Assembly: GCA_041651155.1 (NCBI GenBank)
Contig: JBAZJU010000001.1
Coordinates: 27,932-91,931, forward strand
Origin: Patescibacteria group bacterium
Lineage (GTDB): Bacteria > Patescibacteriota > Patescibacteriia > CAIXNZ01
Reading direction: 5' to 3'
Length of the DNA: 64,000 nucleotides
Within the stretch, counting starts at the first letter, position 1. The number at the start of each line of letters is the position of its first letter. Below the pieces are notes generated by a model. The model had not been told where the DNA came from and ran no database searches. It saw only the letters and a program-made list of their open reading frames with translations. Position numbers and translations under genes: made by a program. Below are positions 35,364 to 39,627 of this stretch, piece by piece.

Positions 35364-36840
35364 TTTCTAGTGTTTCCGTATTAATGAGCACAGTTTGTAA
35401 GCTGTGTATGTGCTCGCCACCAGGATTAATACAGAGCGTATTTCCGAGTAAAGTGACATTGGCGCCATAAAGCCGTGGCGCTTCATGGATGTGGCCGAAA
35501 AGAGCTATTTGTGGTTGCGCTTCCAGAATGAATTGCATTATGCCCTGACTGCCTGCGTGTTTTTGGCCATTCACTTGATCCAACACTTCGTAAGGTGGAT
35601 TATGAATTACCCAAACTGCTTTTTGTTCGCCAAGCTGGTTTTGCAAAACACGAAGCTCCGCCAGGATTTCTTTTGATTTTTTTTCCCAGGCTCGGTACAG
35701 GATTTTTGGTGGCAGGGATTCTACAAAGCTGTAGCCGACGATCGCAAAGTTTTCATCTAATTTGTGGATTTTACCGTGAAGATAGTAGATTATTCCTTCG
35801 CGTTCAGCTTCTTCTAGCAATGATGCGTTCTCAATCAGGTCGTCATTGCCGAGCATTGCATAGACTGGTTTATTGTTGTTGGCTGCTCTCCATTGTTTTG
35901 TCAGAGGCAGAAAAAATTTCTGAAAGAATTTCTGCTGAGCCTGTTTAAGGTGAGCAGGATCTTCTGCTTTATTTTTCAGTTGCGCTATGTTTGAATGTTT
36001 CGCCAAAGAAGCGATATGGGTTTCTTCCAGGATCGTTTTGTAGGCATGAGCCCGAAAGAGTCTTGTATTTGTGTCCTTGAATGATTGGAGAATATGCTTT
36101 GCCAGCGGGCTTTTATGCTCAAGTAAAACTTTTTCAACTCCGTGGGTAATCTTTGTCATTTGCCCTTGATAGAGCTCAAATAGAATGCACTCCAGCAAAT
36201 ATTGCGATGGTGCCCATTCAGAGAAATTTTTTATTTTTGAGCCAAGAGCCAGCGAACACTTGTGCGTAAAGGCATCGCGCATTGCTTCAGTCCAAGTCTC
36301 CTCTTCCTGCTTTAGCCAATCCACAACGCAATCACCTAAAATATCCAGCTCCATTTCAGAAAGCTGGAGTTGAGCCGGTTTCCCGACTGGCTCAGCGCTT
36401 TTGAAAAAAGCATAGAGCTTTTCAAGTATGATTTGTTCCATCATTAAGGTTTCAAACTCATAGAACTTGTTTGTCAGTTCATAGAGTATGTAGCCTTGTC
36501 GCTCTAGATGCCTTGCCAGAATTGCAGAGCCGATTCTCTCATTGAAAGTTTTGATGGCTTGCAAACTCTCTAAATAAGAATTTGATTTTAAGCTCTGTTC
36601 GAGACTGTCAGTCGGAATGACTTCGCCGTCTATAAGCGGCAGATCTTCGTCGTTAATTTCGTAATTTTCTTCTTCAGAGTAGTCAGGGTGCTGTGCAAGT
36701 TTGATAGCTACTGACTTGGGAGTCAGATCGCCACCAAAAACTATTGCATCAGCCTGCTCTTTTTGAGCTAGTCTGAACACAGCTTCAATGGCGTTTTGAT
36801 TCCCGTGTAGATCGGTAGCGTATACAAACCGCATGATCAC
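35326..36840 (-). CDS. calcineurin-like metallophosphoesterase with ~270-aa helical insertion
   Basis: Motifs YATDLHGN, GGDLTP, GNDD, and GHIHE. A long insert separates motifs II and III. Confidence 0.65.
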   Translation of the reverse strand: MIMRFVYATDLHGNQNAIEAVFRLAQKEQADAIVFGGDLTPKSVAIKLAQHPDYSEEENYEINDEDLPLIDGEVIPTDSLEQSLKSNSYLESLQAIKTFNERIGSAILARHLERQGYILYELTNKFYEFETLMMEQIILEKLYAFFKSAEPVGKPAQLQLSEMELDILGDCVVDWLKQEEETWTEAMRDAFTHKCSLALGSKIKNFSEWAPSQYLLECILFELYQGQMTKITHGVEKVLLEHKSPLAKHILQSFKDTNTRLFRAHAYKTILEETHIASLAKHSNIAQLKNKAEDPAHLKQAQQKFFQKFFLPLTKQWRAANNNKPVYAMLGNDDLIENASLLEEAEREGIIYYLHGKIHKLDENFAIVGYSFVESLPPKILYRAWEKKSKEILAELRVLQNQLGEQKAVWVIHNPPYEVLDQVNGQKHAGSQGIMQFILEAQPQIALFGHIHEAPRLYGANVTLLGNTLCINPGGEHIHSLQTVLINTETLEIEVKGGEKYDGT

Positions 36841-37001
36841 CTTACCTCCTTTTTGTTGTCAAAAAACGTTAGTTAAAATCAACTATAATTATATTTCAGA
36901 ATTTTAAAGTATAGCAATAATTAGGCATAAAGTCAATAGTAGCACTGGTAAATATTTTTTGCGACTTAAAAAAATTGCTTTTTTAGAGCAATTTTTTTTG
37001 A

Positions 37002-37075
37002 TGGGCGCTGGAGGGATCGAACCCCCGACCTACTCGGTGTAAACGAGTCGCTCTAACCAGCTGAGCTAAGCGCCC
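37002..37075 (-). tRNA. tRNA-Val (anticodon TAC)
   Basis: Reverse-complement folds as GGGCGCT/AGCGCCC acceptor, anticodon stem ACTCG/CGAGT with loop TTTACAC, and T-arm GGGGG TTCGATC CCTCC. Confidence 0.8.
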
Positions 37076-37211
37076 TGGAATAACTAATAACTTATAACTA
37101 TAACAATAACTCTTGGTATGCGCTTAGCGAAGCTGGTTGCCGTCCGTAAATACTTTAATTCACAACTGCCTGCCTGCCGTAGCTTTAGCGAAGGCAGGAG
37201 CTAAGCGCCCT
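37076..37211 (-). repeat. tRNA-Val-leader repeat unit A (136 nt)
   Basis: Minus-sense begins GGGCGCTTAGCTC, the first 13 nt of tRNA-Val(TAC). It is followed by the hairpin CCTGCC-TTCGCTAAAGCTACG-GCAGG, then GCAGGCAG, then the box AACCAGCTTCGCTAAGC. Confidence 0.5.
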
Positions 37212-37376
37212 AGAATAACTAATAATTTATAACGATAACAATAACTTTTGTAAGGAGCTTAGCGAAGCTGGTTATCACCCATAAATACATACTAACCAAA
37301 CTGCCTGCCTGCCGTAGCTTTTTTATCCGCCGAAGCTTTAGCGTAGGTGGAAGCGAAGGCAGGAGCTAAGTGCCCT
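37212..37376 (-). repeat. tRNA-Val-leader repeat unit B (165 nt), with nested mini-hairpin insertion
   Basis: Begins GGGCACTTAGCTC. Same architecture as unit A, plus an extra CCACCTACGCTAAAGCTTCGGCGG element inserted in the hairpin loop. Confidence 0.5.
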
Positions 37377-37393
37377 TGGATTTTTTTTGCGGG

Positions 37394-37475
37394 TGCGCGG
37401 GAGAGGACTCGAACCTCCACGCCTTGCGGCACAGGCACCTCAAGCCTGCTTGTCTACCGGTTTCAACACCCGCGC
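37394..37475 (-). tRNA. tRNA-Leu (anticodon GAG), long variable arm
   Basis: Reverse-complement folds as GCGCGGG/CCCGCGC acceptor, anticodon stem CAGGC/GCCTG with loop TTGAGGT, a 13-nt variable arm, and a T-arm with TTCGAGT loop. Confidence 0.75.
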
Positions 37476-37482
37476 AAAAGGT

Positions 37483-38190
37483 TTAATTTATATTATCAAG
37501 TATATTAAAAATTTTCAAGCGTTTTCTTCGTAAACATGGTATTTTATCTGAATAATAAATTTTTTTTAGTAAAATTTTCGATTCATTCTTGGCATATTTT
37601 AGTTGATATATTGTAGATTTTTTGGCATGAGTAATGTGCCCATTTAGATTAATAATTTGTTTGATACTTTTCCTTAACCATAAAATATGTTGTTTGCTTG
37701 CAGACACGAAAGTCGTATAAAACATTAAACTTGATTTCCAGCGTTTATCCCAATAAGAATAAAAGGAACCATCTCCATCAAAGTGACCTCTTAAAAAATC
37801 AAAAAAATATTGTTTAGGAATTTTTATGTCATTTAATATTTTCGTTTTGTTTGGCATTAACCCTATGCTTAATAAGAATTTATAAAAATTAACATCCCCA
37901 AATTGAATTACATAATATTTTTTTATTTTATTTCCACCCCGCGATTTTTTACCAATTTTGTTCGTTAATTTTAATATTTTTTTGAATTTTAAAACAAGCT
38001 CTTTGTCCTTAGATGTAAAGTGAATGTGCCTCTTATCAGATGAAAGATTTCCATCGGTTGTAATTAGTCCAATAATATAGGCAAACTCTGGAGCCCATTT
38101 AATTAAAATTTTTGATTGTGGTTTTGACATAATTATCTCAAATTCAAAGCGTCTGCCAATTTTATTATATAATATTTTTACTCTTAACAC
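37483..38190 (-). CDS. LAGLIDADG-family homing endonuclease (two-motif, free-standing)
   Basis: Two LAGLIDADG motifs: FAYIIGLITTDGNL and FLRGHFDGDGSF. Stop codon is 8 nt from the tRNA-Leu 5' end. Confidence 0.75.
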   Translation of the reverse strand: MLRVKILYNKIGRRFEFEIIMSKPQSKILIKWAPEFAYIIGLITTDGNLSSDKRHIHFTSKDKELVLKFKKILKLTNKIGKKSRGGNKIKKYYVIQFGDVNFYKFLLSIGLMPNKTKILNDIKIPKQYFFDFLRGHFDGDGSFYSYWDKRWKSSLMFYTTFVSASKQHILWLRKSIKQIINLNGHITHAKKSTIYQLKYAKNESKILLKKIYYSDKIPCLRRKRLKIFNILDNIN

Positions 38191-38289
38191 AAGTTTATTG
38201 ACATTGTTTTCCTATTCTGTAAATATTAAGGCAAGTAAAACGGGGGCCAATTATGGTCCTTTTAAAATTTCAAGAAGGAGGTAGGTGAA

Positions 38290-39627
38290 ATGGCAGAGTT
38301 CAAGGTTTTGCTGATTGGTTCGGGAGGCAGGGAGTATGCTTATTTAAGAAAGCTACTTCAAGCCTCGGAGGTGTTTGTTCATGTTGCTCCGGGCTTAAGC
38401 GGCATGCTGTATTTTCTTAATGAGGAAGAGCGCAGCCGGGTTAAGCTTTATCCGGAAGTAAAAGCAACTGACGTTAAGGCGATTTTGCAACTGGCGCAAA
38501 CAATCATGCCCGATCTGGTTGTGGTCGGGCCTGAAACGCCGCTAATCTTCGGCCAGGCTGATGAATTGCTCGCCAAGGGCTTGAAGGTTGTCGGCTTTAC
38601 GGCCAAGGGCGCGGAACTGGAAAACAATAAGGCCATGGCTAAAGCAGTTTATCAGCAGCTTGGTGAGCCGACTGCTCCGGGCAAGCTGGTGCTAAGCCTG
38701 CCAGAAGCCATTCCTTTTATTGAGCAATGCCGCCGTGATGGCATTCCTTTAGCTTGCAAAACCAACCACGAAGCAGCGGGCAAGGGCGTTATTGTTCCGT
38801 CGCCCGAAGGCCAGGATGGCAAAGATCACTGGACCTTGGTGGAAGAAACCCTGGTTCAAATGTTTGATCCTAAAAAGCCTCTTGGCTTTTTGTCCAAAGC
38901 CGTCTTGCTGGAGCATTGCTACCGCTCGTTGAGAGAGTGGTCAGCCATGTACTTGCTGGGCAAGAATGGCTTTTGTTTGCCCTGGATGCCAACTAAGGAC
39001 CACAAACTGCTGCACGGCAATAACACTGGCGGCATGGGCATTGTTACCCCGGCGCCGGGATTTTCCATGGCTGACATGAACAAGCGATTGGGAATAATTG
39101 CCAAAGTGCGTCAATATCTGGCAGACAGATTTGGCATTGAGCTCTGCGGAATCCTTTACGAAGGATTGAATCGCATTGGCCTGATCGATTATCTGCTGGA
39201 AACAAATATCCGCGGCGGTGATCCAGAAACCCAAGCCCAGCTGGAATATATTCTGGGAGTGGCTTTCCACGAACTGCTTTTGGCAGCATGCGAAGGCAAT
39301 ACCGGCATTTTAAGCCAAGTAAAAGTGCCAGAAGACATGGTATCAGTTGGCGTGGTCATGGCTTCCACGGGTTATCCAGGTGATTATTCTGCCCAAAAAG
39401 GCAAGGAAATCATCATTCCCCGAGATCTACCGGAAAACGTAATTATCCATCCTGCTGGCCTGGTCTTGGAAGACAACAAACTGAAGATTGCTGGCGGCCG
39501 AGTATTAATGGTTTCTGCCAAAAGAAAAACAATACCCGAAGCCAGGGACATTGTGTACAAAGTGGTCAAGGAAATACAACATGACGGTGCTTTAGACTGG
39601 CGCGAGGATATTGGCATCGCTGCCTAA
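38290..39627 (+). CDS. purD: phosphoribosylamine--glycine ligase
   Basis: N-terminus MAEFKVLLIGSGGREYAYLRKL and ATP-grasp architecture. 445 aa. Confidence 0.85.
   Translation: MAEFKVLLIGSGGREYAYLRKLLQASEVFVHVAPGLSGMLYFLNEEERSRVKLYPEVKATDVKAILQLAQTIMPDLVVVGPETPLIFGQADELLAKGLKVVGFTAKGAELENNKAMAKAVYQQLGEPTAPGKLVLSLPEAIPFIEQCRRDGIPLACKTNHEAAGKGVIVPSPEGQDGKDHWTLVEETLVQMFDPKKPLGFLSKAVLLEHCYRSLREWSAMYLLGKNGFCLPWMPTKDHKLLHGNNTGGMGIVTPAPGFSMADMNKRLGIIAKVRQYLADRFGIELCGILYEGLNRIGLIDYLLETNIRGGDPETQAQLEYILGVAFHELLLAACEGNTGILSQVKVPEDMVSVGVVMASTGYPGDYSAQKGKEIIIPRDLPENVIIHPAGLVLEDNKLKIAGGRVLMVSAKRKTIPEARDIVYKVVKEIQHDGALDWREDIGIAA

Follow-up and report, generated by a model that had tools for sequence, protein, structure and literature searches.

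In a 64,000-nucleotide stretch of the genome of a Patescibacteria group bacterium (contig JBAZJU010000001.1, positions 27,932 to 91,931 of the forward strand; hereafter the window, in whose own coordinates positions are given), a gene for a LAGLIDADG homing endonuclease ends a few nucleotides before an intact tRNA-Leu(GAG) gene. Its relatives make up a large family of the Patescibacteria (candidate phyla radiation [CPR]) that is seated against the 5' end of one tRNA and is apparently undescribed. We consider it probable, though well short of settled, that the gene belongs to a selfish, intron-less homing cassette of about 0.7 kb whose fixed address is the tRNA-Leu(GAG) 5' leader. From 5' to 3', the cassette comprises a pseudo tRNA-Leu 5' half, a -10 box, and the LAGLIDADG open reading frame (ORF), and it extends to +1 of the complete tRNA-Leu(GAG). 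In the window, the corresponding features are as follows.

37483..38130, minus strand: LAGLIDADG homing endonuclease gene, most likely extent, 215 amino acids (aa) plus stop (ORF list, homologue alignment, Pfam, AlphaFold2, Foldseek).
38050..38076, minus strand: LAGLIDADG motif 1, IIGLITTDG, residues 19-27, catalytic Asp26.
37768..37794, minus strand: LAGLIDADG motif 2, LRGHFDGDG, residues 113-121, catalytic Asp120.
37391..37476, minus strand: intact tRNA-Leu(GAG), the host gene of the cassette (ARAGORN; Rfam tRNA at 37394-37475, 48 bits).
38137..38159, minus strand: pseudo tRNA-Leu(GAG) 5'-half fragment, ttggcagacgctttgaatttgag, the window copy of the family motif aTTGGTAtACGCTAttACCTTGAGG.
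38164..38169, minus strand: TATAAT, putative -10 box, conserved in the closest relatives L089 and L098 (alignment of upstream regions).

The mechanically called ORF spans 37483..38190 on the minus strand and gives 235 aa from a GTG at 38190. Homologues are 212-225 aa long and their alignments begin at an internal ATG at 38130, so the gene most likely occupies 37483..38130 and encodes the 215-aa protein to which the motif residue numbers refer. Pfam LAGLIDADG_3 (PF14528) matches the first half of this protein (E = 3.9e-10), and LAGLIDADG_1 gives a weak match on the second half (E = 1.4e-3). An AlphaFold2 model built on an alignment of 40 homologues (pLDDT 88, pTM 0.86) predicts two tandem alpha-beta-beta-alpha-beta-beta-alpha domains with the secondary-structure elements in the expected order. 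An initial annotation of this DNA had described a free-standing two-motif LAGLIDADG gene and recommended comparison with characterized enzymes. That comparison agrees with its description: the top solved-structure match is I-Tsp061I (Foldseek E = 1.7e-10; phmmer E = 1e-4), followed in Foldseek by I-LtrWI, I-AniI, I-DmoI, and I-SceI (probability 1.0). The closest solved structures, I-Tsp061I and I-DmoI, are likewise monomeric and about 200 aa long, each with a pair of LAGLIDADG motifs and a pair of catalytic acidic residues; they are only 14-21% identical to the window protein, are encoded in archaeal rRNA introns, and target ribosomal DNA. The active site is intact: Asp26 and Asp120 are both invariant among 40 close homologues and are present in 97 and 100, respectively, of 100 aligned sequences (the window protein and 99 family representatives). 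The product is thus predicted, from sequence and modeled fold, to be a monomeric-type LAGLIDADG homing endonuclease with two motifs, encoded by an intact gene. Searches of the protein returned no family name from NCBIfam, and LAGLIDADG domains alone from Pfam, with no helix-turn-helix (HTH) domain.

The gene is strictly linked to its tRNA in other genomes. Among clusters at 90% identity, 4,289 relatives reach E ≤ 1e-3; identity to the window protein is 59-89% for the best 120, and all named ones are Patescibacteria/CPR. A pattern scan of one genome per species of the Genome Taxonomy Database (GTDB) found a relative encoded in at least 476 genomes. ARAGORN was run on 80 retrieved loci of species-representative (GTDB) genomes and called a tRNA-Leu downstream on the same strand in 74 (73 GAG, 1 AAG). 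The remaining six contigs are cut within a recognizable 5' part of tRNA-Leu, and five of the six keep a CTTGAGG anticodon loop. Linkage to tRNA-Leu therefore totals 80 of 80 genomes, whatever the wider context, and because these genomes are independent the adjacency is far beyond chance. The tRNA starts between -44 and +21 nucleotides (nt) from the ORF stop in nearly all of these loci; one outlier starts at -114 (L081), and an internal stop distorts the distance in another (L083). In the window, the stop codon lies at 37483-37485, and 6-7 nt separate it from the tRNA. The adjacency and the intact tRNA had been recognized in the initial annotation, and only its figure of 8 nt for the gap needs correction. 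The commonest upstream neighbor is rplS, the gene for ribosomal protein L19 (at least 37 of 87 loci, for example in Jorgensenbacteria); in the window and its closest relatives the neighbor is a divergent purD.

In 21 of 75 non-redundant loci there is no stop before the tRNA and the ORF runs into it, which explains the odd C-terminal tails (...ARVL, ...AGGVTVA) of database proteins. Such read-through ORFs (L008, L010, L016, L057, L072, L073, L077, and others; L006 at 5657-5678) end inside the tRNA, commonly 15 or 35 nt in. At these loci an RNase P cut at tRNA +1 would yield a non-stop mRNA, which implies either that the unprocessed precursor is translated or that tagging by transfer-messenger RNA is tolerated.

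More distant members of the superfamily keep the same position with other tRNA partners. A search of 1.84 billion representatives at 50% identity gave 6,483 clusters at E ≤ 1e-3, 1,036 at 1e-10, and 111 at 1e-30; 99 full-length representatives were clustered, and DNA was fetched for members of different clades. All nine assessable distant relatives (36-51% identity) adjoin a tRNA 5' end on the same strand. The contigs of L116 and L120, which end right after the ORF, are outside these nine. Individual partners, with identity to the window protein and the tRNA start relative to the ORF stop, include the following.

P0144 (40%), locus L113: tRNA-Leu(GAG), start at +24.
P0189 (36%), locus L114: tRNA-Leu(GAG), start at -36.
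P0206 (37%), locus L115: tRNA-Leu(CAA), tRNA within the annotated ORF end.
P0128 (48%), locus L118: tRNA-Leu(UAG), start at -13.
P0158 (47%), locus L119: tRNA-Leu(UAA), start at +5.
Second copy in L035 (UAA clade): tRNA-Leu(UAA), ORF runs into the tRNA.
P0183 (37%), locus L117: tRNA-Phe(GAA), start at +7.
P0127 (47%), locus L121: tRNA-Phe(GAA), start at -10.

The tRNA partner is constant within a protein clade and differs between clades (Leu-GAG, -CAA, -UAG, -UAA, and Phe-GAA). At L035, two paralogous tRNA-linked genes lie within 3 kb (5283-5954, minus strand, and 3001-3645, plus strand), one on tRNA-Leu(GAG) and the other, of the UAA clade, entering tRNA-Leu(UAA) with no stop before it. At L121, a gene-less tRNA-Leu(GAG) stands directly beside the gene-bearing tRNA-Phe. 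Some distant relatives occur in genomes of 55-66% GC, yet every named homologue is patescibacterial, and we do not claim a spread beyond the Patescibacteria. Separately, some family members (P0206, P0223, P0244, P0270, and others; L116 at 1501-2634) have N-terminal extensions of 60-170 aa with faint Pfam matches of HTH type (MarR, HTH_11, HTH_24, Sigma70_r4), which may represent an added DNA-binding module.

The cassette is polymorphic at a single genomic site. We sampled metagenomes with a 32-mer covering the anticodon and variable arm of the window tRNA, a key that is independent of the gene. The sample comprised 24 loci, of which 6 have the gene, 14 lack it (with at least 500 nt of upstream sequence present), and 4 are cut. 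In most gene-less alleles, tRNA-Leu(GAG) starts 8-25 nt past the rplS stop. One gene-less locus, L099, is syntenic with the window and carries purD, a 100% identical tRNA-Leu(GAG), a tRNA-Val repeat, and tRNA-Val. Its comparison with the window delimits the cassette and bears on a second feature.

37512..38214, minus strand: cassette extent relative to gene-less L099, 703 nt replaced by 91 nt (blastn).
37490..37518, minus strand: promoter-like site TTGAAA-17-TAATAT (with TG), at the ORF 3' end and upstream of the tRNA (consensus scan).

The promoter-like stretch is the part retained in L099. The 91 nt of that allele carry a promoter-like site, and the final ~30 nt of the ORF (37483-37511) are still recognizable there. 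A second comparison involves L104, which has the gene in the rplS context and whose gene-less syntenic relatives L108, L091, L110, and L100 have a tRNA identical to its own over the whole length. Because the presence of the gene makes no difference to the tRNA sequence, the cassette comes and goes and leaves the tRNA untouched. Neither comparison (window with L099, or the L104 set) revealed "immunity" substitutions inside the tRNA of the carrier.

These syntenic alleles uphold one half of the proposal, made in the initial annotation, of past intron or homing activity at this tRNA cluster, namely mobility of the homing type. The other half, a lost intron, fared poorly. A stranded relic of an ORF once housed in a group I intron of the tRNA-Leu anticodon loop, or in an intein, is in our judgment very improbable and is largely refuted already. 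What speaks for it is that the upstream tRNA-Leu 5' half ends in the anticodon loop, the classical position of tRNA introns, and that the closest solved relative, I-Tsp061I, is intron encoded. An Rfam scan of 36500-38700 at E values up to 10, however, gave two tRNAs and no group I intron or other ribozyme, in agreement with the annotation's own reading, and a gathering-threshold scan of the whole window likewise gave only tRNAs. Pfam detected no Hint/intein domain in the protein, and the ORF stands alone with its own start. The ORF-tRNA spacing (6-7 nt here, -44 to +21 elsewhere) and the fragment-ATG spacing (0-110 nt) are too short to accommodate an intron core; what lies downstream is a whole tRNA rather than a 3' exon; and hundreds of genomes have the ORF intact and under selection. 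The gene thus belongs to neither the group I intron-encoded nor the intein-associated class, and among the related genomes compared it never lay inside a group I intron. The cyanobacterial and plastid tRNA-Leu(UAA) group I intron, a self-splicing ribozyme that usually lacks an ORF, occupies the same anticodon-loop niche in which the pseudo-half ends, but the present locus has no ribozyme, and nothing interrupts its functional tRNA. The public-record name "Intein-containing protein" given to some members (P0012 and P0310 in name listings), which are stand-alone ORFs of ~217 aa with no Hint domain, appears to be an annotation error.

The initial annotation missed the large family, its clade-specific tRNA partners, and the gene's own upstream pseudo tRNA-Leu 5' half. 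This fragment spans the D-loop, the 3' side of the D-stem, the 5' strand of the anticodon stem, and the anticodon loop, where it is cut short after position 36-38, and it includes one additional nucleotide. The motif aTTGGTAtACGCTAttACCTTGAGG is present upstream of the ORF in 64 of 81 loci (≤6 mismatches). In most GAG-clade loci it lies 0-110 nt upstream of the ATG and is followed by TATAAT or TGnTATAAT. At L084, L039, and L104/L106 an acceptor stem is still attached, and a nhmmer profile of real-tRNA 5' halves detects these copies at E = 1e-8 to 5e-5 and none of 166 control segments. The Rfam tRNA model gave no match in a truncated-match scan of the L084 and L039 fragments, since the score that a half tRNA can reach is insufficient. 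None of the 14 gene-less alleles has the pseudo-half. Where present, it is far more conserved between genomes than the functional downstream tRNAs, and in L104, L039, and L084 it differs from the local tRNA. Such conservation, together with the difference from the local tRNA, indicates on comparative grounds that it is borne by the cassette and is either under selection or continually re-copied. The acceptor-stem parts vary among loci (GCGCGGG, GTGCGGG, GCGGACG) and resemble real tRNA types, that of L104 resembling the L081-type tRNA. In L118, the D-loop block recurs with CTTAG and then TATACT after it, and the pseudo-anticodon reads TAG, as in its partner tRNA. We found no pseudo-half block at the loci examined in the UAA and Phe clades.

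At the majority of loci this block sits between a TTGGTA "-35" and the -10 box. In the window, the best minus-strand match of a consensus scan, TTGGCA-16-GATAAT at 38159..38132, is the fragment itself. The TATAAT at 38164-38169 lies upstream of the fragment and, if it serves as the promoter, would place the fragment in the endonuclease 5' untranslated region. This upstream position in the window's clade weakens the idea that the fragment is conserved solely as a promoter, since promoter function alone does not explain its conservation.

Under the favored reading, the enzyme would recognize the tRNA-Leu(GAG) gene of cassette-less chromosomes and make a double-strand break there, and repair off a cassette-bearing copy would write the cassette into the broken allele. 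tRNA genes are a classic kind of conserved target for homing endonucleases. RNase P removes the 5' leader of tRNA precursors, and because the cassette lies in this discarded part the tRNA would be functional without splicing. The ORF and the tRNA are probably co-transcribed; a scan of the window locus found no terminator between them, and the putative site at 37490-37518 may act as an additional promoter for the tRNA itself. We think it most likely that the pseudo-half has a dual role. It would provide a left, "exon-like" homology arm, or landing pad, for the broken 5' end of the tRNA, a role from which conservation of the break-proximal part and a recipient-like or lost distal part would follow. 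By analogy with I-TevI, which represses its own promoter, it would also serve the promoter of the cassette as a half-site that cannot be cleaved. Sister clades would then have been re-targeted to tRNA-Leu(CAA), -(UAG), -(UAA), and tRNA-Phe(GAA).

A possible but distinctly less likely model treats the cassettes as "splicing-free introns" of tRNA genes. In that model, cleavage by the nuclease falls in the anticodon loop of the tRNA gene, and the cassette brings its own copy of tRNA nucleotides 1-37 at its 3' end, so that insertion would rebuild an intact tRNA. The displaced upstream 5' half would become the landing pad for the next round of homing and, as a non-cleavable half-site, the operator for autorepression of the nuclease, which would explain self-immunity. 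The radiation of enzymes would have diversified by switching tRNA partner (Leu-GAG, -CAA, -UAG, -UAA, Phe-GAA). As a recent event, insertion into the anticodon loop of a resident tRNA, with the upstream half as the resident's left-over, does not fit L104: the acceptor stem and D arm of its upstream half differ from its own tRNA, which is identical to that of the gene-less relatives. We keep this insertion solely as an ancestral or landing-pad scenario.

The endonuclease gene is under strong purifying selection, with a dN/dS of 0.09-0.12 at a dS of 0.5 to 1.5 between the window gene and four relatives. An internal stop occurs in 1 of 80 copies. That copy, L083, has an in-frame stop at 3223-3225 in place of the conserved Gln of a QFGD motif and is otherwise well conserved; it is the sole candidate pseudogene among the 80 genome loci, or else a sequencing error. 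A relocated, pseudogene-like copy, as contemplated in the initial annotation, is contradicted both by this selection and by the relatives that have the same gene at tRNA-Leu(GAG). In 84 of 85 loci the gene has a higher AT content than its flanks, by a mean of 9 points (26-29% G+C against 42-53% in the window), and its GC content follows that of the host (r = 0.79). Endonuclease pairwise identity averages 62%, versus 53.5% for L19 (36 genomes), and the Mantel correlation between the two is 0.22 (36 loci) or 0.11 (18 loci). In the 18-genome subset, a host-host control of pseudouridine synthase versus L19 gave r = 0.58, and endonuclease versus synthase gave 0.43. Host tracking of the endonuclease thus appears weaker than that between host genes, and the history looks mixed, with long residence and some exchange. 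The identity of the tRNA correlates at r = 0.05 with that of the host and at r = 0.19 with that of the endonuclease, although the tRNAs are too short for a firm co-conversion test. A phage vector was considered and rejected: a scan of viral contigs gave only two matches, both at 29% identity.

Several of these values would also suit a domesticated, vertically inherited LAGLIDADG protein serving the host at the tRNA-Leu locus, whether as a WhiA-like, DNA-binding regulator of the tRNA operon or as an RNA chaperone or maturase-like factor acting on the precursor. A dN/dS of about 0.1, conservation exceeding that of L19 and the pseudouridine synthase of the same genomes, partial host tracking, GC content that tracks the host's, and tight, ancient linkage with one tRNA are all in keeping with such a role, and the N-terminal domain of WhiA is among the top structural matches. 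The WhiA match, to a nuclease-dead domain, is at the level of fold only (18-19% identity). WhiA and splicing-only maturases have lost the catalytic LAGLIDADG acidic residues, and WhiA-like regulators have gained a DNA-binding HTH domain at the C terminus; in this family, both catalytic Asp residues are essentially invariant. Moreover, only about 30% of closely related tRNA-Leu(GAG) loci have the gene, gene-less relatives have an identical tRNA and no substitute, Pfam detects no extra HTH domain in the window's clade, and each clade is tied to a different tRNA gene, as fits an evolving DNA-target specificity. We regard domestication as unlikely, though the strongest competitor outside the homing models.

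Some observations weigh against a selfish homing cassette. Average conservation above that of L19 (62% versus 55%), the correlation of 0.43 with the neighboring pseudouridine synthase, and the tracking of host GC are signs of a long vertical residence, and such residence is atypical of a gene that is purely selfish. The ORF 3' end retained in L099 makes that allele look like a secondary loss, not a virgin target. The co-variation of the pseudo-anticodon with the partner tRNA comes from the single UAG-clade locus, L118, and the pseudo-half is not essential to the lifestyle, because the UAA and Phe clades lack it. Finally, the tRNAs are identical in both allele comparisons, and a target wholly within the tRNA would be cut in the carrier too, so self-immunity is unexplained under simple homing. 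This last point lends something to the view that the cassette is a passenger moved by ordinary homologous recombination or transformation between relatives with a common rplS-tRNA-Leu neighborhood, and that the nuclease acts elsewhere, for example in defense or competition against incoming DNA or phages with tRNA-Leu genes. The widespread rplS-tRNA-Leu synteny could supply homology arms for such transfer, and tRNA identity does not track host identity. The nucleotide-strict address and the clade-specific partners are, by contrast, what target-directed insertion predicts, and the viral-contig scan gave no relative above 29% identity; we consider the passenger view improbable.

As a kind, the free-standing homing endonuclease gene is known. 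The T4 SegB gene likewise lies without an intron in a tRNA gene cluster; its product recognizes a motif conserved among tRNA genes, and the gene spreads by "intronless homing" together with the adjoining tRNA DNA (PMC2330249). The cassette has the layout of T4 Seg/Mob-type genes, lying between rplS or purD and tRNA-Leu with no splicing element and with a presumptive target. SegB, however, is a phage-borne enzyme of the GIY-YIG fold whose target is the T-psi-C motif common to many tRNAs, and it has neither a nucleotide-precise seat at one tRNA 5' end nor a pseudo-tRNA half; here, a LAGLIDADG gene on a cellular chromosome has both. The mORF hybrid genes of fungal mitochondria (Allomyces atp6; Glomus atp6/atp9/cox2/nad3) are intron-less insertions of a LAGLIDADG or GIY-YIG ORF in which a host-gene segment is duplicated, with one functional copy and one orphan flanking the ORF (PMC3630166). 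A duplicated host segment is found here too, with an orphan tRNA-Leu 5' half upstream, a complete tRNA downstream, and no orphan in gene-less alleles. In the mORF hybrids, the duplication involves the 3' (C-terminal) portion of a protein-coding gene, and in-frame fusion of the ORF is common; in the present case it involves a tRNA 5' half, with the orphan upstream at the presumed promoter of the cassette. LAGLIDADG_3 genes of the same phylum and superfamily are known from 16S rRNA insertions of CPR bacteria (I-ShaI), but these sit inside rRNA genes, mostly in group I/II introns, and the report on them nowhere mentions tRNA (PMC11270868). Our search of the open-access full-text literature for LAGLIDADG or homing endonucleases with CPR/Patescibacteria and tRNA found no description of this arrangement, which is absence of evidence only. 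What appears to be new is the niche in the tRNA 5' leader, the pseudo-tRNA half, and the clade-specific partnership with tRNAs throughout the family.

Further features of these loci were recorded alongside the cassette. Two direct repeats of ~135 nt lie upstream of tRNA-Val(TAC) in the window (37063-37390, minus strand), between tRNA-Leu and tRNA-Val. Within each repeat, tRNA-Val nt 1-13 recur in direct orientation (GGGCGCTTAGCTC) and tRNA-Val nt 3-21 recur inverted (19-21 nt, 86-89% complementary); each also has a GC-rich hairpin and a tail that is AT-rich and promoter-like. L099 and L006 (5770-5925) have one unit apiece. The mechanistic link between the endonuclease gene and these tRNA 5'-fragment repeats suggested in the initial annotation fails as stated: a unit occurs in L099, which has no such gene, so the repeats are independent of it. 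The repeat looks like an element resembling a miniature inverted-repeat transposable element, or a leader duplication, that targets the tRNA-Val 5' end. A pair of tRNA-Leu(GAG) followed by tRNA-Val(TAC) recurs with or without the endonuclease gene, in AT-rich and 64%-GC genomes alike (L113 2179-2398, L121 1312-1486, L035 3632-4043, and window 37002-37476). In addition, numerous contigs of metagenome-assembled genomes stop ~40-900 nt past the endonuclease gene, often within tRNA-Leu (L009, L012, L016, L018, L030, L040-L045, L050, L064, L069, L074, and others). Such endings suggest that assemblies often break at this locus, possibly owing to a conserved tRNA common to co-occurring species or to presence/absence heterogeneity.

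The received view is that homing endonuclease genes of cellular genomes persist by sheltering within self-splicing introns or inteins. The large family described here appears to persist without either, in a 5' leader that RNase P discards, and it corrects database names such as "intein-containing protein." If the cut sites are as we propose, its members would constitute a natural panel of related LAGLIDADG nucleases whose targets differ in a known way, being different tRNA genes, and such a panel would be useful for studying how meganuclease specificity changes. On the same condition, the enzymes would newly account for the shuffling of tRNA alleles and the breaks in assemblies at patescibacterial tRNA-Leu loci, and would offer a testable case of a selfish nuclease kept for a long time under strong purifying selection.

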